DNA of 64,000 nt from an uncultured Candidatus Binatia bacterium. Lineage in GTDB: Bacteria; Desulfobacterota; Binatia; UBA9968; JAJDTQ01. This document shows, in pieces, positions 4,211-42,108 of the stretch. The stretch's first letter is position 1, and each line of letters opens with the position of its first letter. The stretch spans positions 1 through 64,000 of the forward strand of contig CBDCAF010000019.1 in NCBI GenBank assembly GCA_965213675.1, read 5' to 3'. The position numbers and the translations under genes are program-made. Below the pieces are notes generated by a model. It was not told where the DNA came from, made no database searches, and saw only the letters and a program-made list of their open reading frames with translations.

Positions 4211-4742
4211 CCTTGTGCCTCCTTAGAAGTTGGTGGACCCGCTGCCGGGTCATGCCGAACTTTTCGCTTGCCGCATTGACACCATCCTGTTGCACAAGTG
4301 CGTCAAGCGCCTTGACTCGTTCCGCCGTCCACAACGGCTTGATGCTGTTCCGCATAGCCGCCGCCGCGCAGTCAACGCTACAGGTTCTCTTGCGACCAAA
4401 GACGATGTTCCCGCACGTCCGGCACGATCCCGAACGCCGGCGTGTCAACTTCACCCGGCTGGCATACCTCCACCCGTTGTAGGTGTGTTCCTTACTGTCC
4501 CTGTTCGTTTGCCGGTGTGATTCATACTCGCACCGGAAAAGTGCCACGCCCTTGTTATCGACGTGGTGCAGGTAGTTCCGTGCGTCACGGGACCGACGCC
4601 AGAACACAAGCTCCTGCCAGTTTGCAATAGCCTCGGTCCATTCCCCCACTTGGTACAGCCTCTTGCCGGGTCCCTTCAGACTTTGGAACACCCCCGGCAC
4701 ATGCGTCTCCCTTACCAGCTTCCAGCCCTCCTTGACCTTCAT
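4071..4742 (-). CDS. phage protein (paralogue of 34933 and 35336 domains) with Zn finger and HTH
   Basis: N-terminus MKVKEGWKLV..LYQVGEWT..LFRCEYE; CRTC..TCSVDC; ASEKFGMTRQRVHQLL. Confidence 0.6.
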   Translation of the reverse strand: MKVKEGWKLVRETHVPGVFQSLKGPGKRLYQVGEWTEAIANWQELVFWRRSRDARNYLHHVDNKGVALFRCEYESHRQTNRDSKEHTYNGWRYASRVKLTRRRSGSCRTCGNIVFGRKRTCSVDCAAAAMRNSIKPLWTAERVKALDALVQQDGVNAASEKFGMTRQRVHQLLRRHKDEERTLPETEGTENHDSGVRASEDCDTEEVRGQGTESGVRDVHHAG

Positions 4743-5125
4743 GGTGTGTTTCCTCCCCCGAAAATGTAGTCCGCGTGTTTCTCGATAAGGTCGGCGATTT
4801 CCGAGAAGGTAAGTTCACCATCGTTCGCTTCTGCCAAGTCCTCAAATATGGAGTCCTCTGGTAGTTCTACCTGCCTACTCCTGTGGCTGATTCCAAGCCA
4901 CTCGGATACAGCCGGGTGCAGGTAGGAGAAGCTGATAAAGGGACCGGATTTGTAATCGTAGAGTATGTCCTCGCCATCGCTTGGTATCCACTCCCCAACC
5001 TTGGAAATGTCCGACGCCACACCCAAGCAACAGAACTTGTCACCAGATCGCAGGGCACCCTTATTTTGCTTGTATATGCCGCTTCGCAATGCGGCTAGCC
5101 ATGTTTTCCCGTTCTCTGTAATCAT
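4739..5125 (-). CDS. conserved phage hypothetical protein
   Basis: WLAALRSGIYKQ..FCCLGV..ND..TFSEIADLIE pattern common in phages; AGGAGG RBS. Confidence 0.7.
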   Translation of the reverse strand: MITENGKTWLAALRSGIYKQNKGALRSGDKFCCLGVASDISKVGEWIPSDGEDILYDYKSGPFISFSYLHPAVSEWLGISHRSRQVELPEDSIFEDLAEANDGELTFSEIADLIEKHADYIFGGGNTP

Positions 5126-5150
5126 CTGCCTTCCTCCTGGTTGATAATCC

Positions 5151-5225
5151 TTGCCTTGCCTCGCCCAGCCCAGCCTTGCCTTGCCTTGCCTTGCCTAGCA
5201 GCACCTTGCCCCGCCATGCAGCGCC
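5151..5225 (-). ncRNA. orphan GGY-NN pentamer array (putative guide RNA, VIPR-like)
   Basis: 15 in-phase pentamers on the minus strand (13 GGY, 2 TGC variants), directly downstream of a promoter. Confidence 0.65.
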
Positions 5226-5244
5226 AAATCTAGTTGAAGTCAAC

Positions 5245-5273
5245 ACCCTATAGCGGTTTTTGGGGGATGTCAA
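5245..5273 (-). promoter_or_regulatory. sigma70-type promoter driving the orphan array and leftward genes
   Basis: Minus strand TTGACA(5273-5268)-N17-TAGGGT(5250-5245), same boxes as at 40246-40274. Confidence 0.7.
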
Positions 5274-5295
5274 GACCCCCCCCGTGTAATCGTGT

Positions 5296-5460
5296 CCGTG
5301 GTGGTGGTGCCGTGGTTGCGTTCGACTCGCACCACGTCACGCCATGCACTGCCCGTGGTGGTGGTGGTGTGGTGGTGCCGTGGTGGTGGTGGTGTGGTGG
5401 TTGCGTCTCCGAGTAGCAGACGGCATGGACAACAGGTTAGTGGTGTGGTGGTGGCGTGAC
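5296..5460. repeat. GTG-rich low-complexity repeat tract
   Basis: Repeated CCGTGGTGGTGGTG and (GTG)n runs. Confidence 0.7.
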
Positions 5461-5543
5461 GGCATGGACACGGCACGATCCAGCCTGGATAGCAACCATG
5501 CGTTTGAGAACGCCATGCAATAAGTGACGGAGTGGTTGCGTAC

Positions 5544-5675
5544 AGGTGGCAGGTTATTGACTAGGGGTTTGCGTATGGGTTGCGGACTATTGACCAACAG
5601 GTTGCTTATGGGTTGCTGATTGTGGACTAGGGGTTTGACAATGGCACGTTGATTATGGACTAGGGGTTTGCTTAG
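5544..5675. repeat. 4 x 33-bp imperfect direct repeats (iteron-like)
   Basis: Units start at 5544, 5577, 5610 and 5643; core GACTAGGGGTTTG in three of the four. Confidence 0.8.
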
Positions 5676-5896
5676 CTCGTGGTGGTTGTCAACCCCATAG
5701 TTGAAAACGTCATGCAGTACCAGACGGCACATTCAATTGTGCGATAGGGGTTGACAAACGAGCAGTACGGTATTGGGTGGCCTTCAGTAGGCCGGACAGG
5801 TACTAAACCATTAGGCACCTTCGTAAAGTGCCGTGTCGTGGATTCTACAGCCTTGCCTCTAAGTATGCGAAATCGTTAAGGAATTTGGCCTTAAAC

Positions 5897-5927
5897 TGTT
5901 GATAACTTGTGGATAACCTGTTGATAA
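5897..5927 (-). promoter_or_regulatory. three tandem DnaA boxes with 11-bp period
   Basis: TGTTGATAA, TGTGGATAA (perfect TTATCCACA on minus strand), TGTTGATAA. Confidence 0.7.
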
Positions 5928-6079
5928 CTTAGGGGTTTCCGGCTTGGATAGGTGATTTGGTGCTTAAATCGACGCTAAGGCACCCTCAAATGTGGGTCTT
6001 GAAGGCCGTTTTGACGTCAATCCCTGTAGCTGATTTGGCGTTTTTCTTGCCTTGAGCGCAAAAAAACTACTATAGGTCC

Positions 6080-22475: not shown

Positions 22476-24254
22476 CTACAGGAAAACCGCCCAGAACGAT
22501 GTGATGTTGGTGAGACCCGAACCTACAAGAACCTCCTGCACCAAGAGCGGCAACCCCGCACGTTTGTAAACCGCGCCAACTTCAGAGGGTGTCCATGTGT
22601 GACGGGCACCGTCCGCGTCAATAAACACCACCGTTGGGGTAGCGTCACTTCCAAGGTCGGCAATCTCGATGAAGAATTCAAAGGGTTCGCTAGGGTCAGA
22701 CGACCCGCCGTGGTAGGACCCGTTCGACCAAAGCTGCCAGTTCTCTATCCGCGTACCAAGCTGCCGCACTTGATAGCCGGTGAACTTCTTACCCGGACGG
22801 CTTAGGCGGTACTCGGTAGGGTACTGAAGGCCACGGAAGCGGAGTGTATATCCAGGCAAGCTGCGACCCGGACGCCACAACTGGTAGGTTTCATAGCGAA
22901 CACCACGGCGTTCATTCTGAATCCAGGTGTCGTTATGTTGAGCGTCGGCGGCAGGCAACGACGAACCCGAATCAGCGGTAACGCTAAATGAGTTATCGTC
23001 GGTGCGTGACGTAATGATGAAGTGCTGGCCTAGCGTCAACAGCCCAATGCGGTCGCCCACCTTGGCAAGAGGCAAACCGTCACCACCAACGGTCATTGTT
23101 CCGGTTGGCGCAACGGACGTAGAGAGTCCGGTGTACCGTGCGATTTCATGGTACGGGGAGTTGCTTGCTGCGGCTGTCGTGGTGTCGCCGGCGTCGTTCC
23201 ATGTGATAGCACTAACAGCTTCAACCGGGTCCCTATTGTATAGCCATGCTCCGTCATACCGTTCGTCCGGGCGGTCGCCATACCAAAAGATACCCCCGTC
23301 CGTCTGCACTAGTGCCCGTGTCCGGCTTGTGTAGTACAGGATACGCGGGCTTCCCGACAATGCCGCTGCGCTATCACCGGCATCGTCCCACGTAATCAGG
23401 CCGTGGTCTGCACCGGCTATGTCAAAAAGGTGGACGTTGCTAAGGCGTAGAGCCTCACTAGGCCGTTCGCCATTCGGCCATTCGATTGTACCGTCTACGC
23501 GAAGGACAGTTGTTTCATGTACGGCAGTTCCGATTTGCGTAAAGTAGGCGTCGGCATTGGAGATTGCGGCAACGGTATCGCCGGCGTCGTTCCATGTAAC
23601 AACACCACGATCTTCCATCGCTGTACCACCAAGGAGCTTGGCCCCGGTGATCCGTTCTTCCGGTCTCCCTTCACGCCAGATGATCTTTCCGTCCCTGCCT
23701 ATCCAGACGGCTTCACGAACGTAGGAGTAGACAAAGAAGTCCGTGGCATCAAGAACGGTAGATGGAACGGTGTCAGGTTCCTCACCATCATCGTCCCACG
23801 TTATAGCACCAACCAGCGTTCCGTCCGATTCGTGAAGTTGGGCACCTGTCTCGCGATAGACAGCTTCGGGCCGTTCATCCCATGTGAGATTAGCAACCCC
23901 TGTTCCCGGCGTGATTGTTACTTCTTCTTCGGACTCAACAAGCAGGAAGCTATCAGTGGCGGATGGACGTGCGGCAGCGGCAACGGTAATTTCAGCCGGG
24001 TCGCCCGTACCCCTCGCTATGGCAGTAGTTACGGCTGTTCCGTCCTCATCGACGTAACGAAGCTCATCATCACTTTGCAGGTCTTGTTCCGGCGGACGAT
24101 TGCCACGCCAGTCAATGACACCAGACGTGCCCCATCGGACTTCCTTGTCCACCGCTTCAAACTCAAGCAGGTGGGGGATGTCCGCAACCGTGACCAATCG
24201 GGCTCCCCGTGGTGGCCCGATTGGTCCGTTGAGCCTTCTAAGGTTACGGGGCAT
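22476..24254 (-). CDS. repeat-containing virion protein
   Basis: Repeated G.I.W.GxRP and ITWDDAGD units; directly after the capsid gene. Confidence 0.6.
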   Translation of the reverse strand: MPRNLRRLNGPIGPPRGARLVTVADIPHLLEFEAVDKEVRWGTSGVIDWRGNRPPEQDLQSDDELRYVDEDGTAVTTAIARGTGDPAEITVAAAARPSATDSFLLVESEEEVTITPGTGVANLTWDERPEAVYRETGAQLHESDGTLVGAITWDDDGEEPDTVPSTVLDATDFFVYSYVREAVWIGRDGKIIWREGRPEERITGAKLLGGTAMEDRGVVTWNDAGDTVAAISNADAYFTQIGTAVHETTVLRVDGTIEWPNGERPSEALRLSNVHLFDIAGADHGLITWDDAGDSAAALSGSPRILYYTSRTRALVQTDGGIFWYGDRPDERYDGAWLYNRDPVEAVSAITWNDAGDTTTAAASNSPYHEIARYTGLSTSVAPTGTMTVGGDGLPLAKVGDRIGLLTLGQHFIITSRTDDNSFSVTADSGSSLPAADAQHNDTWIQNERRGVRYETYQLWRPGRSLPGYTLRFRGLQYPTEYRLSRPGKKFTGYQVRQLGTRIENWQLWSNGSYHGGSSDPSEPFEFFIEIADLGSDATPTVVFIDADGARHTWTPSEVGAVYKRAGLPLLVQEVLVGSGLTNITSFWAVFL

Positions 24255-25807
24255 TAGTCTGTCGGTGCTTCGCCATTCGCCTTGAAGTTTACGATCCCTA
24301 CGAAGGCTTCGGGTCTCATAACGGCCAAGGCGCAGCGAACGCTACCTCGGATGCTGAACCGATAGGCTTGGAAATCGTCACTAATGTAACCCATTTCCAC
24401 CCGGACATCATGCCGCATGAAAAGGCAGATGAACATATCCGAGAAGTCACCCACGATTCCGCTGAACTTGTGATTTGCGATACCGTCGGTGGAAACGCCA
24501 TCAACCAGTTCGTTGTTGAGAACAACCCGCAGGCCCCAGGGCATCAAGAACATGGGACCGACTGGTCCGCCGGTGTAGTATCCACCCGCATCCGATTCGG
24601 ACTTGAGCATTTCCTTGTAGAGATTCGGCGTCAGGATGGCCGTGTTTGCCATCTGTTGACCTACCCATCCCGAACCCCAATCAGCCACCATGAACGCCGC
24701 GTCAATCAGGACGTTCCAAGGGTTTTTCAATTCCCTAAGGTCGGTCAGGGCACTGCCGGTAGTCGTCAACTTCAGTTTCTGCACGGCATTGTCAGCATCA
24801 TCGTTCGTAGCATTTCTGCCGTAGTACCCAATAAGCCCCCTCAAGTTTGGAGCTGTGCCAGTACCCGAAAGGATTTGCCTGTCCAATCGAGACTTGACAC
24901 CGTAGGGAACGCGCCGGTTAATGAAGTTTCTCATCTGCGGCTCGTCGTCCCATGCTTCCTCGGTGACGGCGACGTAATGCGAAATCCTGCGAATCAGCGC
25001 CTCGCGTTCCGTCACCGCGTAGGACGACCGATCTGCCAGTGCTTCCTCCGCTTTTTCCTTCGCGCTGTTGGTGTGTTCCGTTTCCTCAAGCCACTTCACG
25101 CTATCCTTGTTGGTCATAACAACAGGGATAAGGTCAGTTACCTGAAGGGGCCGCTCCCGGCTAGGAACTTCACCCGGCAACCGCACGGGGTACGGTTCAT
25201 AGTGTTGCAACTGTTGGGTATGGCCGAACACCCTAGCCATGAATTCCTCGCCCTCAATTTCTTGGGGCGCTTTCCAGTCCCACGAAGTATGTCCACCAGC
25301 ATTGAACTTGTCGCGCAAGCCCTCATCGAAGGACATCCCGTTTTCGGTCAAGTGGCCCTTCACTCCGTCGAACAATCGGATTTGGCGAGCGTTCGGGCGA
25401 TAAACCCCGTTCTGCATCCCGCCACCGTCCATGTGTTCGGGGGAGTAAGGACCATTGAAGTGCTGATCTTCCAGCGCCTTCTGCTTGCGTTCCAATTCCA
25501 GCTTGGGACGCATGGCAGCCCGAATGCCGCACAAGCGACTGTGCATTTCGAGCATTCGTTCGCCCCGCTCCTGCGCCGTTCCGCCCCACCGCGTAATCAG
25601 GTTCGCATCAAAGCGCCCGTCAGCCGTGGCTTCCGTCGCAATCTTGCGAAGCTCGGTGGCAAGTTCCTTGTCAGCCGCTTGGCACTCGCCAAGGCTCTTG
25701 TTGTCGAACTCGTGAAACGCCGCCACAACTGGCTCTTTGACTGTCACCATAAGCGGATTGACGTATCCACTGGAATCCTGAAGGGCTGCGCTAATTGCGT
25801 CAGGCAT
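24254..25807 (-). CDS. HK97-fold major capsid protein
   Basis: VTDLIPV, AKEKAE, LDRQILSGTGT..LRG, PWGLRVV, GDFS and RPEAFV motifs; N-terminal delta-like domain. Confidence 0.9.
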   Translation of the reverse strand: MPDAISAALQDSSGYVNPLMVTVKEPVVAAFHEFDNKSLGECQAADKELATELRKIATEATADGRFDANLITRWGGTAQERGERMLEMHSRLCGIRAAMRPKLELERKQKALEDQHFNGPYSPEHMDGGGMQNGVYRPNARQIRLFDGVKGHLTENGMSFDEGLRDKFNAGGHTSWDWKAPQEIEGEEFMARVFGHTQQLQHYEPYPVRLPGEVPSRERPLQVTDLIPVVMTNKDSVKWLEETEHTNSAKEKAEEALADRSSYAVTEREALIRRISHYVAVTEEAWDDEPQMRNFINRRVPYGVKSRLDRQILSGTGTAPNLRGLIGYYGRNATNDDADNAVQKLKLTTTGSALTDLRELKNPWNVLIDAAFMVADWGSGWVGQQMANTAILTPNLYKEMLKSESDAGGYYTGGPVGPMFLMPWGLRVVLNNELVDGVSTDGIANHKFSGIVGDFSDMFICLFMRHDVRVEMGYISDDFQAYRFSIRGSVRCALAVMRPEAFVGIVNFKANGEAPTD

Positions 25808-26206: not shown

Positions 26207-26962
26207 CTAACCCCTCATTCTAGCCGCTATCCGTGCAGCGGTATTCATAATCACTCGACTCGCTGCCGCACGGGCCATGTCGCTAGGTTCCGGTTCGGGG
26301 TCCGATTCCGGTTCCACGTCAAGCACCTTGCTCGCGTAACCGGCCTCTACTGCTTCCTTCGCGGAATACCACGTTTCTTCCTCCATCGCACTCAACACGG
26401 CTGCTTCCGGGGTACTGGTCCGCTTGGCAATCAAGGACTTGTAGTTATCAGTGTGTGCCTGAAGGCCGTTAATCGCTTGCCCGGACACCTTTTTCAGTTC
26501 AGCCACATCACCAGCCATGCCGATATAAGACCACGGATTGTGGATCATCACTAGCGTACCGTCACGCAAGTAACGATCATCCCCGGCCAACAGCGGAAGA
26601 ACCGCCGCCGACGCTACAAGGCCACGGCCTTCAGTCGTAATCTTCGTTCCGTTATCCATGCGAGCACGAAGGTCCGTGTAAAGCGTCAAACCCTCGGACA
26701 TCAAACCACCGGGGGAGTCGATGATAATTTTGTATGCAGACGCAGCGGCTTCGTCCATTGCCCGCGCAACCATCGCTGCCGACACGCCCCACCAATCATC
26801 AAGAGGACCCTGGATTCGCACAACCGCCATCCCGTCCTCGGTACTCAACCCCATGACTCCATCGCGGGATTCCCCGGCAAGGCATTGATATTCACGTCCG
26901 CTTCGTGTTGCCGCTGCCGCATATCGGTCATGCAGCTTTGCAAGCATTTCCTCGAATGTCAT
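26207..26962 (-). CDS. ClpP-like prohead protease
   Basis: IDSPGG, GLVASAA, VMIHNP and ETWYSAKEAVEAGYA motifs; AAGGAG RBS before ATG 26962. Confidence 0.9.
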   Translation of the reverse strand: MTFEEMLAKLHDRYAAAATRSGREYQCLAGESRDGVMGLSTEDGMAVVRIQGPLDDWWGVSAAMVARAMDEAAASAYKIIIDSPGGLMSEGLTLYTDLRARMDNGTKITTEGRGLVASAAVLPLLAGDDRYLRDGTLVMIHNPWSYIGMAGDVAELKKVSGQAINGLQAHTDNYKSLIAKRTSTPEAAVLSAMEEETWYSAKEAVEAGYASKVLDVEPESDPEPEPSDMARAAASRVIMNTAARIAARMRG

Positions 26963-26978: not shown

Positions 26979-27028
26979 TTGTCATGCCTTGCCACGCCAC
27001 GCCGCGCCTAGCCGTGCCTTGCATCGCC
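26979..27028 (-). ncRNA. orphan GGY-NN pentamer array between portal and protease
   Basis: GGCGA TGCAA GGCAC GGCTA GGCGC GGCGT GGCGT GGCAA GGCAT GACAA, in phase. Confidence 0.6.
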
Positions 27029-27032
27029 GCGC

Positions 27033-28331
27033 TTATGTCGGTTCAGCTTGTCCGCCACCATTTGACGGGGCACCTTTCGGGTCTTGTAGCTTGTCACTTT
27101 CAGGATCATCGTCTTGAATCATGCCCATGACAGCACGGGCTTCGTTCCGCGTCATAATACCAAAGTTTGCGGCTGCACGTCCAGTGGCTTCAATCTGTTC
27201 GGTCAAGGTTCCCAACGATACACTCGAAGTATCAGTATGAATGCGCAACCCCATCTTAAGATCGTCCGGCGACAATAACTTCCACGAAAGCTGGCTGTCA
27301 ATCAAACTTGTACGCAACTGAATCGTGTACCGCTCAAAATCAACGGCCTGTGCCTCGAACGTCCGGGACCGCATACCCTCGTGGTAATGACCGAGACGAA
27401 CGGGCGAGATCATAAATACCCGTGCAATATCCTCAAGACCCCACTTCAACAGTTCAATCAGTTGCAAATCATCGGCGGAGAATGCGTTAAGCTGTTCGAT
27501 CTTGAAACCGGGAGGCAACGTGGGAATCTTCCCGGACGTGGCCGCGCCCCTGTAGTCGCTTCGGACTTTCTCCACGACCTTGCGCCACGCTTCGTAGCTC
27601 GCTTGATAATCCTTATCGACCATTATCACGTTGCGCGAACTAAGGCCCTTGTTCAAAAGCTGTTGGTAGTGTTGGACCGTGGAAATCATCCCCTCGCCGA
27701 TGTTCGACGCCGCGAAGGCGATAGGCGAAGGTGAATATAGGCCATTGAATCCAGGACCGTTGAAAGACAGCGTACTGTGGGACGTAGTGCGTTGTTGCCG
27801 CGTTCCTACCGAACCCTGCCCCTCACTCCCTAGCAAATAAAGGTCGTACTCTTGATAGGGAGCATAACGGCTTTCCTTGAATTCGATTCGGTATGGTCTG
27901 GCCGGGACAAGTTCAATGGGTTCCTTGCCGGCGTAGCCACGTCTGATCCAAGCGTACCCGTTGCCCCGTGAAATCATGTCCCGAAAGATCATCGTCCAAC
28001 ACTGGACGGGATCAAGAATGCGGGACGGGAAATCCAGAATCATCTGAACCGGGTGTGATTCGGGTTGCCATGCCTTACCCACTTTCCGGCTGACACTACG
28101 GGGTAGCGTGGCTATCTGGTACGAGATAAGGGAGACGGCAAGGTAAGCAGCCGGGATGGCGTCGTAACGTCCGTTGTGGCCGGATGTGGCGTCCTGTGTG
28201 ATAAGGCGGGGGAGAAAGCCATCATCGGTCACAATAAGGTCTGGCGGACCTTCCGCTAGGTTGCGGTCGTTTTTGTAGACCGACCCACTGGCCGGGGTTG
28301 TACCCGTTAGCGCGTCACGAAGGGATTGCAT
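27033..28331 (-). CDS. HK97-family portal protein
   Basis: IATLP, RGNGYA, IARVFMISP and MTRNEAR motifs. Confidence 0.9.
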   Translation of the reverse strand: MQSLRDALTGTTPASGSVYKNDRNLAEGPPDLIVTDDGFLPRLITQDATSGHNGRYDAIPAAYLAVSLISYQIATLPRSVSRKVGKAWQPESHPVQMILDFPSRILDPVQCWTMIFRDMISRGNGYAWIRRGYAGKEPIELVPARPYRIEFKESRYAPYQEYDLYLLGSEGQGSVGTRQQRTTSHSTLSFNGPGFNGLYSPSPIAFAASNIGEGMISTVQHYQQLLNKGLSSRNVIMVDKDYQASYEAWRKVVEKVRSDYRGAATSGKIPTLPPGFKIEQLNAFSADDLQLIELLKWGLEDIARVFMISPVRLGHYHEGMRSRTFEAQAVDFERYTIQLRTSLIDSQLSWKLLSPDDLKMGLRIHTDTSSVSLGTLTEQIEATGRAAANFGIMTRNEARAVMGMIQDDDPESDKLQDPKGAPSNGGGQAEPT

Positions 28332-29953
28332 TAAACCGCCGTGACTGTCTCTTGACCGGATTCCAACATATCAGCCCAAAACTGGTCTATGGTTTGTTCT
28401 TCCGGTGGCATTCTCCATTGGCGTCCCATGCTAACGCTCATTACGCCAGCCTGCAAGGCATCAATCCTACCACGTTGACGGCCTTTGTCCAATTTGGGGT
28501 TGCCGTTGGAATCGTAGACTACAATCGCCTCTGAAATGGCAGAACGCATCAACAGGTTATCTTCCATGTGGAAAATAGAACCGCTGTCGTCGTCGCTAGA
28601 AGCCGATTCGAGGACTTCAGCCTGGAAGGCACGGACATCTTGGCTTCCCTGTTCTCCGTGACCTACCCGGCGCAAGTCTATCTGTTCGTACCAGTGATAC
28701 AGTCCCGCCGCTGATAGCGCCTGTTGCAGGTCTGCCTTTTTCCAGTTGTCTGCCGCCATACCCGCTATTTCCTGGCCTTGAATGTTCTCCATCATGTCGG
28801 CAAGGAACTTGCGGTTGTTCGTCGCGTAGCCATTGTAAAGCCGTAGTTCCCCGCGTCGATACATTTCCGCGTATCGGTCGCCAACGTGGTCTTGCTTGCC
28901 GCGTTCCTCTAGCGTCGGCTTCTTGGGAAGCGCCCCATGCGCCTCGAAGCGCCCTGATACCGGCCAATAAAAGCAGACAGCACTCATTGACCGACTGCCG
29001 CCGAAGTCAATTCCCACGAACACGGGTCCTTCGCGCTTGGCTGCCTTGGGCTTCACGATGTCATCCCAATATTCCAGTTCGACGATGGGACCGAACTTCT
29101 CGACTTCCGGGGTTCCCTTGTTCAATCGTTGCGCCCGCCAGAAAAGAATCTCCGTGCCGTTTTGTGCGCGTTTGAGATCGTCTAGTATCTGCTTCTTCAA
29201 CGATGGGATGTGATCCATGCTCGGATTCGCCTTGCGAACCACATCAATATCAAAGTCAGGATCGTCCTTCTCGGCGGCATAGATGGCACGGTTGTCTATG
29301 GTTTCGTCCTTGAGAAGCCGGGACCACCAGTGCATATCATCTTGCGCCTTAGTCCCAAGCAGCACGAACCGTGCATCCTCCTGCTTACCCAATGCACCTT
29401 TCAGCGCGTTGAACATTTCCTCGCCATCACTACCCTTTGACCATTGGGCCGGTTCGTCTCCGATGAACAAACCAGCCGCGAAGCCGTGTGACAACTTGGG
29501 ATCGCAACCGATAGCGTGAAGTTCCGTACCGTCCGGCAGGTAGCCAATGCTTCGCTTTTGCGTCGAATCCAGGACGCTCCACGGGTTCTTTTGTTTCTGA
29601 CTCCGTGCCGCTTGACGGTCCTCATCAATGCGCTTGGATATGTGCTGAAGGATTCGCTTGAAGCAAACCTTGGCTTGGGTAAGGCTGGCCGACACAAGAA
29701 TGGTGTCTCGCATCGGTTCGTAGAGAGCGCCGCCGGGTGTGATGGCCGTGGTGGCAATGGCGGCGATAAGCGCGGTTTTCCCGTTCCCCCTGGCAATGGT
29801 CAGTGCGCTAATATCCGCGACGCACAGTTCCTTGATAAATTCGATTTCCCACGGCAACAGTTCAAAGGGTTGACCGCGTAGGGGTCCCTCGACAATTTCT
29901 AGCGCACGGATTTCATCAATGATCTGATCCGCTAGGGCATTCCCTTTAAGCAT
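28331..29953 (-). CDS. terL: terminase large subunit
   Basis: LLPWE, Walker A ARGNGKT, Walker B FIGDE, KANPS, GIDFG and RIDALQA motifs. Confidence 0.92.
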   Translation of the reverse strand: MLKGNALADQIIDEIRALEIVEGPLRGQPFELLPWEIEFIKELCVADISALTIARGNGKTALIAAIATTAITPGGALYEPMRDTILVSASLTQAKVCFKRILQHISKRIDEDRQAARSQKQKNPWSVLDSTQKRSIGYLPDGTELHAIGCDPKLSHGFAAGLFIGDEPAQWSKGSDGEEMFNALKGALGKQEDARFVLLGTKAQDDMHWWSRLLKDETIDNRAIYAAEKDDPDFDIDVVRKANPSMDHIPSLKKQILDDLKRAQNGTEILFWRAQRLNKGTPEVEKFGPIVELEYWDDIVKPKAAKREGPVFVGIDFGGSRSMSAVCFYWPVSGRFEAHGALPKKPTLEERGKQDHVGDRYAEMYRRGELRLYNGYATNNRKFLADMMENIQGQEIAGMAADNWKKADLQQALSAAGLYHWYEQIDLRRVGHGEQGSQDVRAFQAEVLESASSDDDSGSIFHMEDNLLMRSAISEAIVVYDSNGNPKLDKGRQRGRIDALQAGVMSVSMGRQWRMPPEEQTIDQFWADMLESGQETVTAV

Positions 29954-31376: not shown

Positions 31377-32242
31377 GCGAATATCCTTTCCCGCGTGATT
31401 ACCAGTTCGGGCAGATGGTTGTGGTGCGCATTTTTCATCGTCACTCGCACGGCGTGGAATCCATATTGATGCACCAATTCCACAATCTCGGGGGCGGCGT
31501 CGTAGGTCATCAGGAAGTCTGCGGAATGACGGGCCAAGGTTTTGAACAGGGCGGCATGGTCAACCGTGTTGTGGGCATAGAGCCGGTGACCGGGCCTTTT
31601 ACCGCTAGCCGCTGTATAGGGCGGGTCGAGGAATACCGCGACACTTTCCGTGCCGGTTAGCAGGTAATCCAGTATCCGGGCTCCGTCACCTTCCAAGAAG
31701 TGAATCTTGTCTGCGTGGCGCTCTATTTCTGCAATCCGGTGGACCAATGTCTCAGGATACCATCGAGACAGCACTCCCTTGCCATTCTCGCCGTTGCGCG
31801 TGAAGGATGCGCCAGGGGCCAAGATTCCCGCCCGCTTCGTGCGGTTCAGCACCAGCGTGCGAAACCCATGCTCGCCTGCTCCGGTGATCCCATTCTGTTC
31901 GAGATCCAAGAGTGTTTCTCGCGTCGGCGTGAACTGCGCAATCCATTCCCGGAGCATGGCCCCGTCTCTTAACGCGGCATGCCAAAAGGCCGCAACGTCG
32001 TGATCGATCTCGATCATAATGGCGCGATCAGTCAGGTCCTCCATGACGGCGGTAAGCGAGACGATCCCGCCGCCTGCGAACGGCTCCACCAGAGTCTTCG
32101 GCCTTGTGACCTTCAGCCACTCCCGGATGTGCGGAACGAGCCATGTTTTGCCGCCCGGATAGCGAAGCGGGCTACGCTGTGGCACCGTGGCGACGTTGAC
32201 GGCGGGGAAGCGTGACGTGGGGAATGCCACGCTAGAAGACAT
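31373..32242 (-). CDS. Dam-like (D12 class) DNA adenine methyltransferase
   Basis: SPLRYPGGK, EPFAGGG and FLDPPY motifs. Confidence 0.9.
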   Translation of the reverse strand: MSSSVAFPTSRFPAVNVATVPQRSPLRYPGGKTWLVPHIREWLKVTRPKTLVEPFAGGGIVSLTAVMEDLTDRAIMIEIDHDVAAFWHAALRDGAMLREWIAQFTPTRETLLDLEQNGITGAGEHGFRTLVLNRTKRAGILAPGASFTRNGENGKGVLSRWYPETLVHRIAEIERHADKIHFLEGDGARILDYLLTGTESVAVFLDPPYTAASGKRPGHRLYAHNTVDHAALFKTLARHSADFLMTYDAAPEIVELVHQYGFHAVRVTMKNAHHNHLPELVITRERIFA

Positions 32243-33221
32243 CGGAGCCTCCCGGATGCACGGCGGGCGCGGCAGTGGCGGTCAAGTCCGCGTAAGGCAG
32301 CCGCTTCCCGTCCATGCGATGTGCCGTGGTCGCCATCTGCGTCAGCGTGTTGTCTTGGCGCTGGTTGTGCCGCCCGGAGAACTCGTTGACGTAGCGACCC
32401 AGGTGCTTGGCGCTCATCTTGTGGTAAGTGCCGTGGTAGCCGCGCTTCAGCATCGACCAGAAGGACTCGATCCCGTTGGTGTGTGCCATGCCGTCCACGT
32501 ACTCGCCAACCGAGTGCTTGACGGCTTCATGGTTCGGGAGTCCGCGATAGGCGGCGTGTTCGTCGGTGTAGACCTTCGCCCCGTCGGCGGTGTGGTCCGC
32601 CACGAACCCTTGAAGTGTCGCCGTGGTGGTATCGTCCACTACAGTGGCGCTCACGGCGTTGGTGTCCCGATCCTTTGCCCCTACCACGGCGACCTTGCCC
32701 ACTGCGCCCCGCCCGGCGCGGAGCTTCTTCGAGGCATGCTTGTTCTTTTCCTTGCCGCCGATGTAGGTTTCGTCCACTTCCACCGGACCGGCAAACTCAC
32801 CCGCTTCGTCCTGGAATGTCTCGCGAATCCGCATCGCCATGAACCACGCAGACTTTTGGGAGATTCCCAAGTCCCGATGAAGCTTCATCGAGGAAACACC
32901 CTTCAGGTTGGTGGTCAACAGGTAGATGGCAATCATCCACTTTTGGCACCCGATAGGCGAGTTGTGCATCAGGGTTCCGGTCTTGACCGAGAAGTCCTTT
33001 CGGCAGTCCCGGCAACGGTAGGGTTGCGGCTTCCGGCTGGCTCTCTCGTGGATGTTGGCGGACTCGCATTCCGGGCAACGCGGCCCGTCCGACCAACGCC
33101 ACTCCGCAAACTGGCGTTCCGCCGTGGCGTCATCCGGGAACATCTTGAACAAATCGACGACCGAGAGTCCGATTCTGTAGTACTTGCCGGGTGCCTTGTG
33201 CGCCATCTTTCCTACCTCCAA
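32232..33221 (-). CDS. IS1595-family DDE transposase
   Basis: Paralogue of 1033-2016: CPEC..CRDC, VEVDETY, TDEH, HTNGIESFW, C-terminal SDVF. Confidence 0.95.
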   Translation of the reverse strand: MEVGKMAHKAPGKYYRIGLSVVDLFKMFPDDATAERQFAEWRWSDGPRCPECESANIHERASRKPQPYRCRDCRKDFSVKTGTLMHNSPIGCQKWMIAIYLLTTNLKGVSSMKLHRDLGISQKSAWFMAMRIRETFQDEAGEFAGPVEVDETYIGGKEKNKHASKKLRAGRGAVGKVAVVGAKDRDTNAVSATVVDDTTTATLQGFVADHTADGAKVYTDEHAAYRGLPNHEAVKHSVGEYVDGMAHTNGIESFWSMLKRGYHGTYHKMSAKHLGRYVNEFSGRHNQRQDNTLTQMATTAHRMDGKRLPYADLTATAAPAVHPGGSDVF

Positions 33222-33605: not shown

Positions 33606-34121
33606 CTATAATTCCCTAACTTTAGGCTTACGCCGCAAGGTCCCGACAATTCCCGACCTCGAAGCATCACGGGTATGCTTTCCACTGATAGGAATGTAAT
33701 CAAGGCGCGGCAATCTCCTTTCCATATCTGTCCATCCCGCATACCGCCAATTAGCGGCCCTGTAGACGTAGCCAAGGTGGCCCTGTGTGGTATCTGCGTA
33801 GCTCACCACAATGGCCGGCCGAAAAGCCCTAAGAGCCCGCGAGAGAAACCAAGTCTCGGTGTTGCGTGGCAATCGGTCGCTAACCCACAACCGATTCAAC
33901 TCAAAAACTACATCCGGTGATCGTGGGGCAACGGACACACGTAAATGGTGTGAGGCAGGGACGCCAAGGGTGATAATACCCTGTGGCTCGCCCCACCAAC
34001 TATCACGCAAGCAAAAGGCGTCGGATATGGACGGTTTCCGGTGTAAGTAGTGTTCGCGAATGATAATAATTGCCGCATCCGAACTTTTAATCCGTTCTAC
34101 AGTTAACTGTTGCCTCATCAT
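33606..34121 (-). pseudogene. mom: Mom-like DNA modification protein (GNAT fold), 5' part, truncated by the IS
   Basis: EHYLHR, FELNRLW, RNTETWFLS and VSYADTTQGHLGYVYRAANW motifs; the stop lies inside the IS end. Confidence 0.8.
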
Positions 34122-34498
34122 ACTTCCACCTGCACCCACGCTTCGTATCCCGATTCGTTGACCCGTCGTTCTAGTTCCACCTTCTTTCCGCACACCGTCA
34201 CCACCTTTCGTTCCCCCGTTGCAACGAAGGGCGCGGGTCGGTCCAAGTCCATATCGTTGTGCCCCCGCAACCTCCTTTGCTTTTCCTCCTTTCCCAACGG
34301 CCTGCGTTTTGCCTTCGCGGATCGTTCTCTAAGTCCACGTTCCGCTTCCCGCTGGCATTCCCACTTTTCACAACGGTAGTACATCAACCCACCAAGCCGA
34401 CGCGGGACCAACTCTCGAAGGTCGCCACACGTAGGACAAATCGGAGACCCACTCCCGGTAGTTCCACCCATGACCAGCTCCTTACTCCTTGCCTGCAA
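34118..34498 (-). CDS. hypothetical Zn-ribbon protein
   Basis: CPTC..CEKWEC; coupled to the mom-like gene. Confidence 0.5.
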   Translation of the reverse strand: MQARSKELVMGGTTGSGSPICPTCGDLRELVPRRLGGLMYYRCEKWECQREAERGLRERSAKAKRRPLGKEEKQRRLRGHNDMDLDRPAPFVATGERKVVTVCGKKVELERRVNESGYEAWVQVEV

Positions 34499-37600: not shown

Positions 37601-37775
37601 GATCCCTCCATTCCTCCCTTATCCGACGAAGGAATTTTATGCAGCGAAGGCACGTTATTTCCGATTCCTTGTCGGTTCCCGAATCATGCGTCTCTCCCCA
37701 AGCACGACGAATTGGAGTGCCACAAACGCTACGTGCGGGCCAGAATAACTGCCGCATGTGTTTCTTCAATTTCAT
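37593..37775 (-). CDS. small Zn-binding protein
   Basis: H..VCG..ITCLRC, similar to the neighbouring gene. Confidence 0.5.
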   Translation of the reverse strand: MKLKKHMRQLFWPARSVCGTPIRRAWGETHDSGTDKESEITCLRCIKFLRRIREEWRDHG

Positions 37776-38899
37776 GCCTTTGCCCTACCTTTCCGCTGTC
37801 TAATCACGTAGGCCGTGATGTTATTGCGAATCTGCTTTGCCAGCGAAAGGTCAATCTCGTGTGCCATCTTCAGCATGTTCCATGACATCGGCGGGGCGTG
37901 TGGAAGCAGCGCCTTGTATTGTGCGAACGCGAACCGCCGCGCCTTGGGGATGTCCAGCGGGTAGCGTTTACAAGCGAAATACATAACCTGCCCCCACACA
38001 TCCATCGGTGACAGTCCCAAACGAACCCGCTTCCCCTTTGGCCCGATCTCGACCATTTCTTGACCGATCTCGCGAATGTCCTTTTTCGGGGCGGCTGCTT
38101 TTTTCTCCGGTTTCCACCCGCAATTCGGACATTCCTTGTGCCAGCGCAGCATTATCAATCCGCATTGCGGACATTCCATCGGAGACGTTGTAGGTTCATC
38201 CCGTGGCTTCTTGTCCTTGGCTTCCACTTCCGGCAACCCTTCAATGCCGTTCTCGTAGAAGTCCTCGATGTCATCCTGCATACGAATGTAGTTGCCGGAT
38301 TGATCCAATAGGACGCAATACTTCTTTCCCTCGTGCGGACGCATTCCGCGACCATACATCTGAATTACAGACGATAGGGATTTGCGGTACGCCCGCCGGT
38401 CGATAATCATTTCGGTGTCGGTGAAGTCCGCACCACGCTGAAGAACCTCACAACTTACAAGACCGCGAATCTCCCCGGCGCGGTAAGCTGCCACCTTCGC
38501 ACGTCTGTCACGGTCCTTATCGTCCAGGTAGGACAGTTGTTCACACGGGATACCTTCTTGGTTAAACCGCCGCACAACGTCCCTACCGTCCACAACAGAC
38601 GCAGAGAACACCAGGAATTTCGCGTTGCGACCAAAGAGCGCGTCACACTTCTCTCGATACTCCGGGACCATCCGCCCGATGATTGCTTGGGCCGCGTCGC
38701 CTGCCGAACCTGCTTCCAGTTCGCCGGAACTGGTCCGCTTGATTTTGCTTATATCGACGTGTTCGCAGCCGAATGGTCGCAACGGGACAAGCCACTTGTC
38801 CGCAATCAGTTCGTTCGTAGTACGAACGTTGACAACCCGTCCGTAGAACCCACTCAACTTGGGGTTGAACGGCGTGGCGGATAGACCTATGACCCGCAT
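37772..38899 (-). CDS. SF2 helicase, C-terminal part (motifs III-VI plus Zn finger)
   Basis: GLSATP, VLQRGADF, QMYGRGMR, CPQC..CPNC; has its own GGAAGGA RBS. Confidence 0.85.
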   Translation of the reverse strand: MRVIGLSATPFNPKLSGFYGRVVNVRTTNELIADKWLVPLRPFGCEHVDISKIKRTSSGELEAGSAGDAAQAIIGRMVPEYREKCDALFGRNAKFLVFSASVVDGRDVVRRFNQEGIPCEQLSYLDDKDRDRRAKVAAYRAGEIRGLVSCEVLQRGADFTDTEMIIDRRAYRKSLSSVIQMYGRGMRPHEGKKYCVLLDQSGNYIRMQDDIEDFYENGIEGLPEVEAKDKKPRDEPTTSPMECPQCGLIMLRWHKECPNCGWKPEKKAAAPKKDIREIGQEMVEIGPKGKRVRLGLSPMDVWGQVMYFACKRYPLDIPKARRFAFAQYKALLPHAPPMSWNMLKMAHEIDLSLAKQIRNNITAYVIRQRKGRAKA

Positions 38900-39117
38900 C
38901 GTCCTTCCAGTCTCGAAATTTCACGATCTATGTGGAACCGTGCTTTTCGCAAGTCCTCAAGATCGTCTCCGTCTGTCGGCTTTTTGCCAAAGCGCCAGAT
39001 ATACGCGATGGCATTCCCCAGGTTGAAATTGAATTCTTCAGTTACCTGAATGCACTCAATCCCACTTGGGTGCCATGTATAGTGTGGTGGGTGCGTTACG
39101 TTGTTATTTGCCATCAT
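38887..39117 (-). CDS. DUF3310 (SaV-like) protein
   Basis: VTHPPHY..IECI..FNLGNAIAYIWR.GKK..EDLRKARFHI. Confidence 0.85.
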   Translation of the reverse strand: MMANNNVTHPPHYTWHPSGIECIQVTEEFNFNLGNAIAYIWRFGKKPTDGDDLEDLRKARFHIDREISRLEGRCGS

Positions 39118-39580
39118 GGACTCCCATTACTATTGCCATGACATTCTTCATTTTGATTTTGCCCTTGTCTTGTGGCCGGTAAAAAACCACTCCCTCATTG
39201 CACATTATAGGTATTGGCGTTGCCTCAATGCTCAAACCATACAAGTGTAAGATGTGCCGAACATATTTTTCCTGAATGAACACCCTGTGCTGTCCACCCT
39301 CGCTAGGGAATCCAACTGCAACGTGCCAAGCTATCGGTTTCAACTCGACATCAGTGCGCAGTCCTACCTTTGGCAGTTTTTTGAAGATGTCCATGTCGAT
39401 CATGTTGGACGTGAACCTAAGTTCTTCTTTCCACTTTTCCCCTGCGGGCAAGCCGTGTCGGAGAATCATATGGTTGTTGGTAAACCAATCCCCGCGAACG
39501 GACCAAACGTGCGACACATTCGCAATCGCCTTGCCTGTCAGCTTGGCAGGCCCCAATTCCCGCCAGTTTTCCATTATCAT
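39104..39580 (-). CDS. hypothetical phage protein
   Basis: WFTNNHMI..FIQEKYV..AIVMGV; coupled by an ATGA overlap. Confidence 0.55.
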   Translation of the reverse strand: MIMENWRELGPAKLTGKAIANVSHVWSVRGDWFTNNHMILRHGLPAGEKWKEELRFTSNMIDMDIFKKLPKVGLRTDVELKPIAWHVAVGFPSEGGQHRVFIQEKYVRHILHLYGLSIEATPIPIMCNEGVVFYRPQDKGKIKMKNVMAIVMGVHDGK

Positions 39581-39993
39581 TCCATCCCTCCCAAAACCTT
39601 GAGAACCTTCCGGCGAATGATGTGACATTCGTCGATAATCACAAGGTCGAACTGTTCAAAAAAGCACTTCAGGTTTTGTTCAGACATCCTTTCAAGTGTC
39701 TGCGAAGAACACACCACAATCGGGGCTGTTACCCGGTGGCTGTTCCCGGCCTGAAGGACTCCGTGATACAGTCCGGCCTTTGTCAACGCCGCCGAAGTCT
39801 GGTCTACCAGAACCAAGCGGTCCACCAGAAAGCAGGCCCGCTTGCCGTTCTCGACAACCCGTTTCATCATGTCCACGGCGACCATCGTTTTCCCCGATCC
39901 CGTTGGGGAACAGAGAACTTGGTGGTTGAAGCCACGGCGCAAGCCTTCCCTCAAGGCTTCTTCAGCCTCTAGTTGGTAGGGTCGGAGCTCCAC
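39577..39993 (-). CDS. SF2 helicase, N-terminal part (motifs Q, I, II)
   Basis: LRPYQ, PTGSGKT and IIDECH, with a stop 14 codons after DECH. Confidence 0.85.
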   Translation of the reverse strand: MELRPYQLEAEEALREGLRRGFNHQVLCSPTGSGKTMVAVDMMKRVVENGKRACFLVDRLVLVDQTSAALTKAGLYHGVLQAGNSHRVTAPIVVCSSQTLERMSEQNLKCFFEQFDLVIIDECHIIRRKVLKVLGGME

Positions 39994-40187
39994 TAGTCCG
40001 CTTCCTCTAGGTCCTTCCTATGGATGGCAAGGCCACGGGCACTAACCATCCGGTACAAGTCCGTAATCCAATGTCTAGGGATTTGGCCGTTCCACACCCA
40101 GGACCGCACGGCACTTGCTGTGAGTCCGAGTTCGCGGGCAACGGCCTTCGTCCCACCTAGTCTGTCTAGGACGGTTGAGATTTTCAT
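39993..40187 (-). CDS. Cro-like HTH regulator
   Basis: LGGTKAVARELGLTASAVRSW..IP; ATG 40187 lies 7 nt after a -10 box (leaderless). Confidence 0.8.
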   Translation of the reverse strand: MKISTVLDRLGGTKAVARELGLTASAVRSWVWNGQIPRHWITDLYRMVSARGLAIHRKDLEEAD

Positions 40188-40194
40188 GCAAAAC

Positions 40195-40274
40195 CAGATA
40201 CCGGAAAGAAATTTCCCTGTCAACTACTTTTTTCCGTTGTAGTAGTTGACAAGGTAGGAAGGTGGTGGTAGGGT
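40195..40274. promoter_or_regulatory. divergent promoter pair with operator-like inverted repeat
   Basis: Left: TTGACA(40223)-N17-TATCTG. Right: TTGACA(40246)-N17-TAGGGT. IR TGTCAACTACT-N12-AGTAGTTGACA. Confidence 0.75.
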
Positions 40275-40314: not shown

Positions 40315-40399
40315 GGCTAGGCCGGGCTAGGCGGGGCACGGCCCGGCATGGCACGGCAAGGCACGGTCAGGCAAGGCAGGGCAGGGCAAGGCATGGCAA
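40315..40399 (+). ncRNA. GGY-NN pentamer array 1 (putative guide RNA)
   Basis: 17 consecutive perfect GGYNN units. Confidence 0.75.
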
Positions 40400-40440: not shown

Positions 40441-40600
40441 GACAAGACGTGGCAGGGCTCGGCAAGGCGCTACGAGGCAAGGCCGGGCTAGGCAGGGCTA
40501 GGTATGGCGTGGCAGGGTCAGGCAAGGCACGGCTAGACTAGGCAAGGTAAGGCGCGGTATGGCATGGCAAGGCAAGGCGCGGCGAGGCATGGCAAGGCAA
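40441..40600 (+). ncRNA. GGY-NN pentamer array 2 (putative guide RNA)
   Basis: 32 in-phase pentamers: 28 GGY and 4 GAC/TAC variants. Confidence 0.75.
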
Positions 40601-40649: not shown

Positions 40650-40704
40650 GACACGGCCGTGCTAGGCTCGGCGAGGCGCGGCTTGGTAGGGCAGGGCAAG
40701 GCAA
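40650..40704 (+). ncRNA. GGY-NN pentamer array 3 (putative guide RNA)
   Basis: 11 in-phase pentamers immediately before the RBS of the RAMP gene. Confidence 0.7.
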
Positions 40705-40725: not shown

Positions 40726-41298
40726 ATGGAAATCGCAATCCGAGTGGAAGGCAAGTCACCGCTGTTGTTGCACCGTTTCACGGACGCGGCCCAGATGGCG
40801 GCAACCAACGGCACCCGGTCCAACATCACGACCGCACGGGAACCCCGCGAGGAAGCGGAAAGCCACCTGTACGTAGGCGAGGACGGGACGCTTATCGTTC
40901 CCTCCCCCAATATGTTCCGCTGCATCATCGACGCCGGCAAGTTCCACAAGGTCGGCAAATCCAAAATGACCACCGTCAAAAGCAGTTTGATCCCCGCCGC
41001 GCTGCTGATCGACCCGGCAGACGGCATTCCGATCCTCCACGACAAGCCCTGGACCGTGGACACGCGGCCCATCCGTATCCCGGCGAACGGTTCGCGGATT
41101 CTCCGTCACAGGCCGTGCTTTCACGATTGGGCCTTGGAATTCACGCTCACCTTGGACACCGACATCATTTCCCACAACACACTGCGTGACGTGGTAGACG
41201 ACGCAGGGAACAAGATCGGCTTGGGCGACTTCCGACCGGACACCAAGGGTCCGTTTGGTCGGTTCGTTGTCACGAACTGGATACCGTCTCAAAGGTAG
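40726..41298 (+). CDS. solo Cas7/RAMP-like RNA-binding protein (Vipr-like)
   Basis: Beta1 IRVEGKSPLLLH, VPSPNMFRCI helix, Arg-rich thumb DTRPIRIP..RILRHRP, WALEFTL, Gly-rich loop IGLGDFRP..GPFGRF. Confidence 0.75.
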   Translation: MEIAIRVEGKSPLLLHRFTDAAQMAATNGTRSNITTAREPREEAESHLYVGEDGTLIVPSPNMFRCIIDAGKFHKVGKSKMTTVKSSLIPAALLIDPADGIPILHDKPWTVDTRPIRIPANGSRILRHRPCFHDWALEFTLTLDTDIISHNTLRDVVDDAGNKIGLGDFRPDTKGPFGRFVVTNWIPSQR

Positions 41299-41314: not shown

Positions 41315-41347
41315 GCCACGGCAGGGTTCGACAATCCCTGCCGTGGC
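41315..41347 (+). other. 12-bp perfect hairpin preceding array 4
   Basis: GCCACGGCAGGG-ttcgacaat-CCCTGCCGTGGC; no U-tract follows. Confidence 0.7.
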
Positions 41348-41394
41348 TTGGCTAGGCATGGTTGGGCAAGGCGCGGCAAGGCAAGGCTTGGCGT
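41345..41394 (+). ncRNA. GGY-NN pentamer array 4 (putative guide RNA)
   Basis: 10 consecutive perfect GGYNN units. Confidence 0.7.
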
Positions 41395-41415: not shown

Positions 41416-42108
41416 ATGAATGAAGCATGGACACCCGAAGCAGCCGCCCGACTCCGGGACTACCTAGCACGACCCGGCTACACAATCCCCGTGGGTCTGG
41501 GCACGGAAGATGCGGCGTGTTCCATAGCCGCCATCAACCTTGCCCTAAGCGGCGTAATGACCGACGACATACCGGAATGTATGAGTCTCGTGATCGGCGT
41601 GTGGGTAAGGACAATCCAGGACATGATGCCGGAAGCCATCCGTAACAGTCCTAAATGGATTGAGTTACTGCCCCTGGCGGCAGGCACAGGCAGGGAACAA
41701 GACTACGAACACAAGCGCCTCGACATGGTTCTCGATTGGATGTGGGGCACCGTCCTGCCCCAAAGCCAACTCGCTGCTAATCAAGAGGGTTGCGGCAGGC
41801 AATGGAAATCAATGTGTGCGGGGAGAACACAGTATCTTGCGGTAATTGCGTATATGGCTGCCGATCGGTGTGGCGCACTCAACTTGGCCCGCCGGGCCGA
41901 TAGCGCGAGAGAAGCTCGGAAGACTGCCCTGGCGCTCCAAAATTTCAAACCAACGTGGTCGAACACAAGTACATTTGTCGTCAAGGCGGTACAACAAGCG
42001 TGTCAAACTGCCATGCGGTCGCGCACATCACCAGCATGGGGCAACATTGACCCTGTAGGCATGTTGACCCGGCTTATTAACCTACCCGGAAGGAAAAACA
42101 ATGAGTGA
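41416..42108 (+). CDS. conserved phage hypothetical protein
   Basis: GGAG RBS; ACSIAAINLAL..DDIPECMS..LLPLAAGT. Confidence 0.65.
   Translation: MNEAWTPEAAARLRDYLARPGYTIPVGLGTEDAACSIAAINLALSGVMTDDIPECMSLVIGVWVRTIQDMMPEAIRNSPKWIELLPLAAGTGREQDYEHKRLDMVLDWMWGTVLPQSQLAANQEGCGRQWKSMCAGRTQYLAVIAYMAADRCGALNLARRADSAREARKTALALQNFKPTWSNTSTFVVKAVQQACQTAMRSRTSPAWGNIDPVGMLTRLINLPGRKNNE

Follow-up and report, generated by a model that had tools for sequence, protein, structure and literature searches.

The stretch of phage DNA analysed in this work (64 kb, further called the window) carries on its minus strand, at positions 5151-5225, a tract of 15 GGY-NN pentamers, which is probably a vrRNA gene, that is, one encoding a guide RNA of the VIPR system of the same phage. 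VIPR (Viral Interference Programmable Repeat), which silences by means of RNA guides in a CRISPR-like manner, was first reported in 2026 (10.64898/2026.04.26.720920); this kind of feature is already known, and the 5151-5225 array adds a member to it. A preliminary description had taken the array for a co-regulated guide acting in trans, and the homology to VIPR argues for this reading. The novelty is modest and concerns the arrangement: a VIPR-positive phage apparently keeps scattered vrRNA genes at distances of 14 and 35 kb from vipr, on the strand opposite to it and just before start codons. In the accessible parts of the three 2026 VIPR preprints we found no vrRNA genes placed tens of kb from vipr in a VIPR-positive phage, and likewise no duplicated promoter, no arrays inside a head-assembly operon and no tails overlapping ribosome-binding sites.

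According to the accessible parts of the discovery preprint, VIPR systems are mostly borne by phages or prophages and consist of Vipr, a protein of approximately 20 kDa, and of vrRNAs, in which 9-16 GGY/NN repeats precede a tail; the DNA target is specified by the NN bases, with one base skipped per unit (10.64898/2026.04.26.720920). As reported there, the natural targets are competing prophages and satellites, and self-targets never reach an 80% NN match (10.64898/2026.04.26.720920). The published callers, as far as they are described in these parts, require at least four GGY-NN units. The structural preprint presents the Vipr filament as helical, with one protomer per repeat (10.64898/2026.04.26.720927), and in type II systems of Escherichia phage SUSP1 and of a Pseudomonas fulva prophage the vrRNA co-purifies with Vipr; structures, the skip rule and silencing assays come from the SUSP1 VIPR (10.64898/2026.04.26.720920, 10.64898/2026.04.26.720927). 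VIPR is proposed in these sources to pre-date CRISPR and has been studied so far in elements of E. coli and Pseudomonas, while the window provides a complete VIPR example from a distant, uncultured-type clade. The discovery pipeline, as outlined in the accessible text, examined 20-kb windows around vipr (10.64898/2026.04.26.720920), and therefore dispersed guides would have been missed and guide repertoires under-counted.

A purpose-written scanner reads the 5151-5225 array as 15 pentamers in one register (score 12), 75 nt without any indel, with 12 GGC, one GGT and two TGC triplets and two GGCAA units at the end. This output is identical to the unit string given in the preliminary description, whose coordinates and distances are also correct. 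AA accounts for 7 of the 15 NN dinucleotides, four GGCAA units stand in a row and so do two GGCTG units; Tandem Repeats Finder picks up only the regular 3' part of the array (5149-5196, period 5), and Rfam 15 gives zero matches across the entire window. The array is not attributable to chance: in 200 first-order Markov surrogates of the window the maximal score was 5, against 12 observed. Its guide is low in information, and the AA-rich NN string with four consecutive AA suggests slippage. The NN strings of the six arrays found in the window share pairwise identities of 0.44-0.67. That of 5151-5225, said earlier to be unlike all others, reaches at best 0.67 over 9 units, with the AA-rich 3' end of the array at 40451-40600, and no more than 0.56 in the remaining comparisons.

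The contig to which the window belongs (C20, 70.6 kb) is a tailed-phage genome with 56% GC, compared to approximately 65% for other contigs, so that the assembly may not represent the host of the phage. As to the host taxon, the best relative of RecA (Geomonas) is 80% identical. PHROG matches identify the large terminase (28331-29953), portal (27033-28331), head protease (26207-26962) and major head protein (24254-25807), as well as tail genes (49.7-64 kb) and a replication and recombination module (37.7-46.6 kb). Within the latter lies the main VIPR locus on the plus strand, where the array scan reports three arrays upstream of the vipr gene (40726-41298): 17 units at 40315-40399, 30 units at 40451-40600, possibly comprising several vrRNAs, and 10 units at 40655-40704, ending 21 nt before the vipr start codon. 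Downstream of vipr, 10 further units on the same strand (41345-41394) end 21 nt short of the start ATG of a 230-aa gene, possibly an accessory one. The remaining two arrays, 5151-5225 and a 9-unit one at 26984-27028 (minus), are dispersed, 35 and 14 kb from vipr, respectively, both opposite to the vipr strand; from 5151-5225 to the gene at 40726 we measured 35.5 kb, in agreement with the 35 kb stated before. The 26984-27028 array, located inside the late operon, fills the gap from the portal stop codon to the head-protease start, leaving 4 nt on one side and 21 nt before the head-protease ATG on the other. All six arrays lie on the sense strand and each ends 5-25 nt before an ATG, three of them exactly 21 nt before a real gene start. 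When the whole assembly (4.53 Mb, 21 contigs) was scanned, arrays scoring at least 7 were confined to the phage contig, apart from one perfect microsatellite, and otherwise only four short runs scoring 5-6 were noted.

The microsatellite, (GGCTC)31, is placed in the host chromosome at G000:C1:3713838-3713992 (L001 1501-1655), seemingly in an intergenic position, and formally it is a GGY-NN array with NN = TC. Perfect (GGCTC)n tracts are present in at least four congeneric genomes as well, with the copy number ranging from about 8 to about 60.

Upstream of the array a promoter-like TTGACA-N17-TAGGGT site spans 5245-5273 on the minus strand (TTGACA at 5273-5268 and TAGGGT at 5250-5245, 17 nt apart). 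A pattern scan located the second copy at 40246-40274 (plus), where it heads the main VIPR locus. These are exactly the two matches to TTGACA-N(16-18)-TAGGGT in the window, each upstream of an array, as the claim of common -35 and -10 boxes implied, with 0.01 matches expected and two or more reached in 0 of 100 shuffles. A generic sigma-70 scan reports neither site, since TAGGGT agrees with TATAAT at only three of six positions, and for this reason the sites are named here putative promoters. The leader separating the -10 box from the first pentamer (5226-5244, minus) is 19 nt long, close to the 20 nt estimated earlier, and contains GTTGAC; by eye it resembles the approximately 19 nt which precede the 40315 array, while a MAFFT alignment of the promoter regions was uninformative. 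The only 8-mers common to both promoter upstream regions are GTTGACAA and CCA/GGT repeat runs.

Further observations concern the surroundings of the two sites. The spacer of the main-locus promoter contains GGTGGTGG. A small Cro/YdaS-like helix-turn-helix gene (39993-40187, minus; the ATG at 40187 gives about 64 aa) is divergent from the main VIPR locus, and several GTTGAC/GTCAAC motifs located in between could be operators. On the other side, approximately 680 bp upstream of the promoter of the 5151-5225 array (5280-5960) are filled with repeats and hold no convincing gene; the repeats comprise a 25-nt GGT/GTG unit in two copies (5353-5401), a 33-nt unit in 2.5 copies (5555-5637) and an 11-nt unit in three copies (5897-5930). 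This repeat-rich segment may serve as an origin or in regulation.

The gene at 40726-41298 (plus) encodes a protein of 190 aa, which matches phrog_4652 (E 8.2e-24) and has zero matches in Pfam. The sole family of PDB sequences matched by it is that of chain 36pp_D, 'SUSP1 Vipr protein' (phmmer E 8e-11), and a profile of 21 homologues matches the same chain at E 1.9e-11, spanning residues 5-187 of 202. The AlphaFold2 model (pLDDT 83) has a predicted Cas7/Csm3-like fold of the RAMP type, which is marked by an RRM core, a glycine-rich loop and a thumb: in Foldseek the top matches listed (E about 1e-5) are chains of the Csm3/Cas7 type from type III and VII CRISPR complexes, and 60 matches at E of 0.001 or lower have TM values of 0.4-0.55. 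Together with the homology to SUSP1 Vipr this bears out the early assignment of the gene to RAMPs. In the accessible part of the structural preprint, the SUSP1 Vipr contacts to G1, G2 and Y3 are ascribed to H17, R138, D177, W178 and R179 (10.64898/2026.04.26.720927). In the HMMER alignment these correspond to H16, R129, D168, F169 and R170, four of them identical and one being an aromatic swap; among the 21 homologues R129, D168 and R170 are invariant and F169 nearly so, and the G-loop motif is invariant too. On these grounds the product is, as judged by homology, a Vipr/RAMP protein with conserved GGY-holding residues. In cultured-phage records 156 homologues were found, the best in a Gordonia phage (32% identical), and all 15 records listed are annotated as hypothetical protein.

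A leader bound by a TRAP-like or CsrA-like protein, or a G-quadruplex, was the first reading of the array and it was superseded by the Vipr homology and the VIPR preprints. In the Bacillus trp leader TRAP-binding (G/U)AG triplets occur about every 5 nt, one per subunit of an oligomeric protein, beside a translation start; TRAP itself is a ring whose fold is unrelated, and there is no guide information in its repeats.

Homologues of the Vipr protein were followed in two collections. On 23 viral contigs, where they are 48-61% identical, same-strand arrays stand beside vipr in 16 loci, a weak opposite-strand run is the only one in 1 locus and 6 have none. In contigs taken from one genome per species, 57 loci encode a Vipr homologue and 38 of them have at least one array; the closest relatives (55-63% identity) come from Planctomycetota, Magnetococcales and Desulfobacterota assemblies. 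Because arrays accompany vipr homologues so often (16/23 viral and 38/57 genomic loci), they appear to be functional units and not local low-complexity DNA, as had been argued from the window. The arrays of the genomic loci share the strand of vipr in 90 of 90 cases and stay within approximately 5 kb of it (flanks of up to 10 kb were examined), and opposite-strand arrays such as those of our phage were not seen up to 10 kb from vipr at any of the 57 loci. The large terminase (28331-29953) and exonuclease (42101-42955) have no relatives in the viral contig collection when searched with the same tool as Vipr. With Vipr relatives at 55-63% identity across phyla and none for these two proteins, the VIPR cassette looks far more conserved than the phage backbone, or else more mobile.

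A total of 127 distinct arrays of relatives have a median of 13 units. Their last two to three units are biased towards AA (33-56%), while units further upstream use all 16 dinucleotides, and the commonest triplet following an array is GGA (33/127). The ending of the 5151-5225 array, two GGCAA units and then GGA, matches this typical form. Locus L024 has 12 tandem arrays, each of which ends with GGCAA followed by a GGATTTTAG-type tail. Tandem runs of 9-14 arrays with short conserved tails were observed at L024 2143-2944, L052 347-2041 and L060 6044-7005, the tails being of GGTTTTTT(C)GAGGGG type in L052 and of GGTTCTTCC type in L060; such runs are far longer than the four vrRNAs described for SUSP1 in the accessible text.

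Arrays distant from vipr were looked for by whole-record scans of five related viral records. Record G005 has one approximately 15 kb from vipr, in the packaging operon, immediately before the portal gene (13-14 units; the terminase and portal families of G005 are unrelated to those of our phage). As an array is thereby found in head-assembly operons of both phages, the arrangement may be a recurring one. In the host family (28 genomes, one genus) a Vipr-like gene is present in just one other genome, G029, where on a 41.6-kb contig (G029:C5) arrays flank the gene and a further array lies 17 kb away. Considering G005 and G029:C5, this phage is not the only element with arrays far from vipr. The Vipr-like frame of G029:C5 is 28% identical and sits within a 403-aa open frame, and the arrays of this contig (19508-19621, 20950-21092 and 37769-37862; L099, L100) consist of blocks offset by one base, with junctions sharing a G, resembling what the accessible part of the discovery preprint calls 'staggered arrays with overlapping vrRNAs' (10.64898/2026.04.26.720920).

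When compared with the type II vrRNAs of SUSP1 and the Pseudomonas fulva prophage, as far as the preprints set them out, the 5151-5225 array is made of the same GGY-NN pentamers with conserved GGY and variable NN. Its 15 units fall within the 9-16 range, a small Vipr is encoded by the same phage and the GGY-contacting residues are conserved; one array lies directly upstream of vipr with others downstream, and no self-target is present. Differences are also clear. Vipr is here only distantly related to that of SUSP1 (E 8e-11); in place of the pseudoknot tail published for the SUSP1 clade there are short tails, rich in purines, which overlap ribosome-binding sites; and, unlike in the SUSP1 and P. 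fulva systems as described in the preprints, arrays are found also at 14 and 35 kb from vipr, on the strand opposite to it. With class 1 CRISPR crRNA on a Cas7 backbone the system shares an RNA guide in a RAMP filament and periodic base flipping, but it has neither a repeat-spacer array nor cas genes, and a VIPR guide, unlike crRNA, is non-contiguous according to the preprints: two bases are read per 5-nt unit and the target is read at a 3-nt period.

The array had also been called an orphan. Solo, or orphan, vrRNAs are known, from the accessible part of the relevant preprint, on F5 satellites and VIPR-null SUSP1-like phages, i.e. on elements without vipr (10.64898/2026.10.15.759431). Like them, the 5151-5225 array is apart from the vipr operon, and Vipr would come in trans. 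Yet solo-vrRNA elements, as presented there, lack vipr and borrow or attack a rival's system, and their vrRNAs sit where vipr-vap1 was deleted or in non-coding DNA of satellites (10.64898/2026.10.15.759431), whereas our phage encodes its own Vipr on the same contig, and its array is headed by a second copy of the putative main-locus promoter and runs into a gene. Since the phage carries vipr, we regard 5151-5225 as a dispersed vrRNA of a VIPR-positive phage and not as a solo or orphan one.

The mechanism which we propose for this guide would proceed as follows. A sigma-70-type promoter at 5273-5245, co-regulated with that of the main locus, would start the RNA near 5238, and Vipr protomers from the 40726 gene would coat the array RNA, one per pentamer. 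Each GGY would be held in pockets of the protein with the two NN bases exposed, so arranged that the filament could read double-stranded DNA by its NN bases, skipping every third target base, and block transcription in a competitor, be it a phage, a prophage or a satellite. The guide, of about 90-110 nt, would derive, by cutting or protection, from the 5' leader of an mRNA continuing into the downstream 128-aa gene. By analogy we infer that 5151-5225 is transcribed, loaded by Vipr and directed at a target, and that the rules of the distant SUSP1 clade apply to this Vipr. Of the five sequencing runs listed, none is recorded as RNA, and the one guessed to be RNA contains next to nothing of the window.

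Targets were searched with the fraction of matched NN positions as a score (the published scheme), shuffled guides as the null and 80% as the threshold for self-targets and natural targets alike. In the assembly, with skip rules of 0-3 nt, nothing went beyond shuffled guides, the best 1-nt-skip match of 21/30 (70%) being equal to shuffled maxima. In the phage itself the best 1-nt-skip match was 19/30 (63%; P 0.65 against 200 shuffles), and in 93 related VIPR loci (1.02 Mb) it was 20/30, below the shuffled mean. Sub-guides of 9 units gave nothing beyond the null on 5.49 Mb (assembly plus related VIPR loci), and no cross-targeting was found between the guide and the VIPR element G029:C5. One candidate, L039, was rejected as a target: a sub-guide matched there at 16/18, yet the full guide only at 20/30. 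The gapped search with the NN string, proposed in the preliminary description as a check, did not produce any match above shuffled guides in the 5.49 Mb. The 5151-5225 guide has no self-target at 80% NN match or above in the phage (63%) or the assembly (70%), in agreement with natural vrRNAs as published in the accessible text (10.64898/2026.04.26.720920). The missing target says little, as the 5.49 Mb searched are the assembly and related VIPR loci and targets would rather be expected in congeneric genomes, IMG/VR and metagenomes.

The array is followed by a 3' tail (5126-5150, minus), which begins with GGATT, includes a purine-rich Shine-Dalgarno-like stretch and ends at the ATG (5125) of the first gene downstream, encoding a 128-aa DUF8296-like protein of phrog_18067 (4739-5125, minus). 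By eye, a purine-rich CCA-R-G-R-AGGA-like stretch is common to the tails of all six arrays, and it doubles, to judge by its sequence, as a putative ribosome-binding site. A same-strand scan revealed no terminator-like site between the array and the 128-aa gene; the RNA therefore probably runs on into this gene, which is thus probably co-transcribed with the array. A 7-bp hairpin is predicted at 5120-5149 with the start codon in its 3' arm (-7 kcal/mol, z -2.4, 5 of 200 shuffles equally good). It is predicted for the tail of this array only; the other five tails are predicted to be unstructured and no structure is common to the six. An invariable tail after the repeats, structured in the SUSP1 clade, is a mark of vrRNAs.

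Overlap between the tail and the ribosome-binding site of the gene that follows makes a role in cis possible, and this leads to the first alternative, in which the array binds Vipr with a local or stoichiometric role and its NN bases have no DNA target. A Vipr filament beside the ribosome-binding site would then control translation of the 128-aa gene, or the array would act as a sink buffering free Vipr. Such an explanation fits the position of the six arrays 5-25 nt before an ATG, three of them at exactly 21 nt from a real gene start, the predicted pairing of the first bases of the tail with the start codon, the low information of the NN content and the lack of a target in 5.49 Mb. Pure binding of protein, however, does not explain why NN is hypervariable among the 127 arrays, and vrRNAs located upstream of vipr work as guides in the accessible part of the discovery preprint (10.64898/2026.04.26.720920). 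Homologues of the 128-aa gene are without an array in 4 of 4 other viral loci, so the array is not travelling with the gene, and in locus L067 arrays precede, by eye, terminator-like hairpins and T-runs instead of genes. Taking both sides into account, we consider the cis or sink role unlikely.

A combined arrangement can be envisaged as well, in which the vrRNAs of this Vipr clade are embedded in 5' leaders of separate transcription units and the Vipr filament formed there is a translational operator for the gene downstream. The operator function is suggested by the overlap of the tail with the ribosome-binding site and by the predicted pairing of 5120-5149 with the start codon, and the arrangement as a whole seems to us rather unlikely. 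If it is true, a unit with the early-type promoter that the main locus also has and the late head-assembly operon would yield different guides at different times, and guide production would be coupled in cis with gene control. Guides that may belong to early and late transcription units and stand against start codons are in any case a lead on the timing and processing of guides.

The second alternative to a working vrRNA gene is a decaying or inert copy, formed when main-locus material together with the promoter was duplicated, GGCAA was expanded by slippage and function was lost. The four consecutive GGCAA and two consecutive GGCTG units, the two degenerate TGC units and the resemblance of promoter boxes and leader to the main locus are what such a history would leave. 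The 75 nt, however, stay in perfect register with no indel. Internal degeneracy is, moreover, common in working vrRNAs according to the published caller, as the accessible text has it (10.64898/2026.04.26.720920). With the promoter boxes intact and the 3' end of the form typical for the clade, we find this explanation very unlikely. That the array is unrelated to VIPR, being a two-tier G-quadruplex, a generic G-rich leader or chance low-complexity DNA, is hardly conceivable: GG-N3 spacing can in principle form two-quartet quadruplexes, but a quadruplex has no need of the pyrimidine conserved at the third position, arrays and vipr occur together across phyla, on one strand in 90/90 cases (genomic loci), and chance is excluded by the surrogates (maximum 5 vs 12).

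Several other features of the phage were recorded in the course of annotation. A phrog_16 DNA helicase (37772-39993, minus) is in two pieces, the N-terminal one at 39577-39993 and the C-terminal one at 37772-38899; between them is a 174-aa ORF (39104-39628) with no PHROG match, possibly a mobile ORF that was inserted there, an intron or an intein. Two phrog_25593 paralogues (1033-2016, plus, and 32232-33221, minus) are each located beside a DNA methyltransferase gene, and a Mom-like DNA modification gene is present at 33606-34193.
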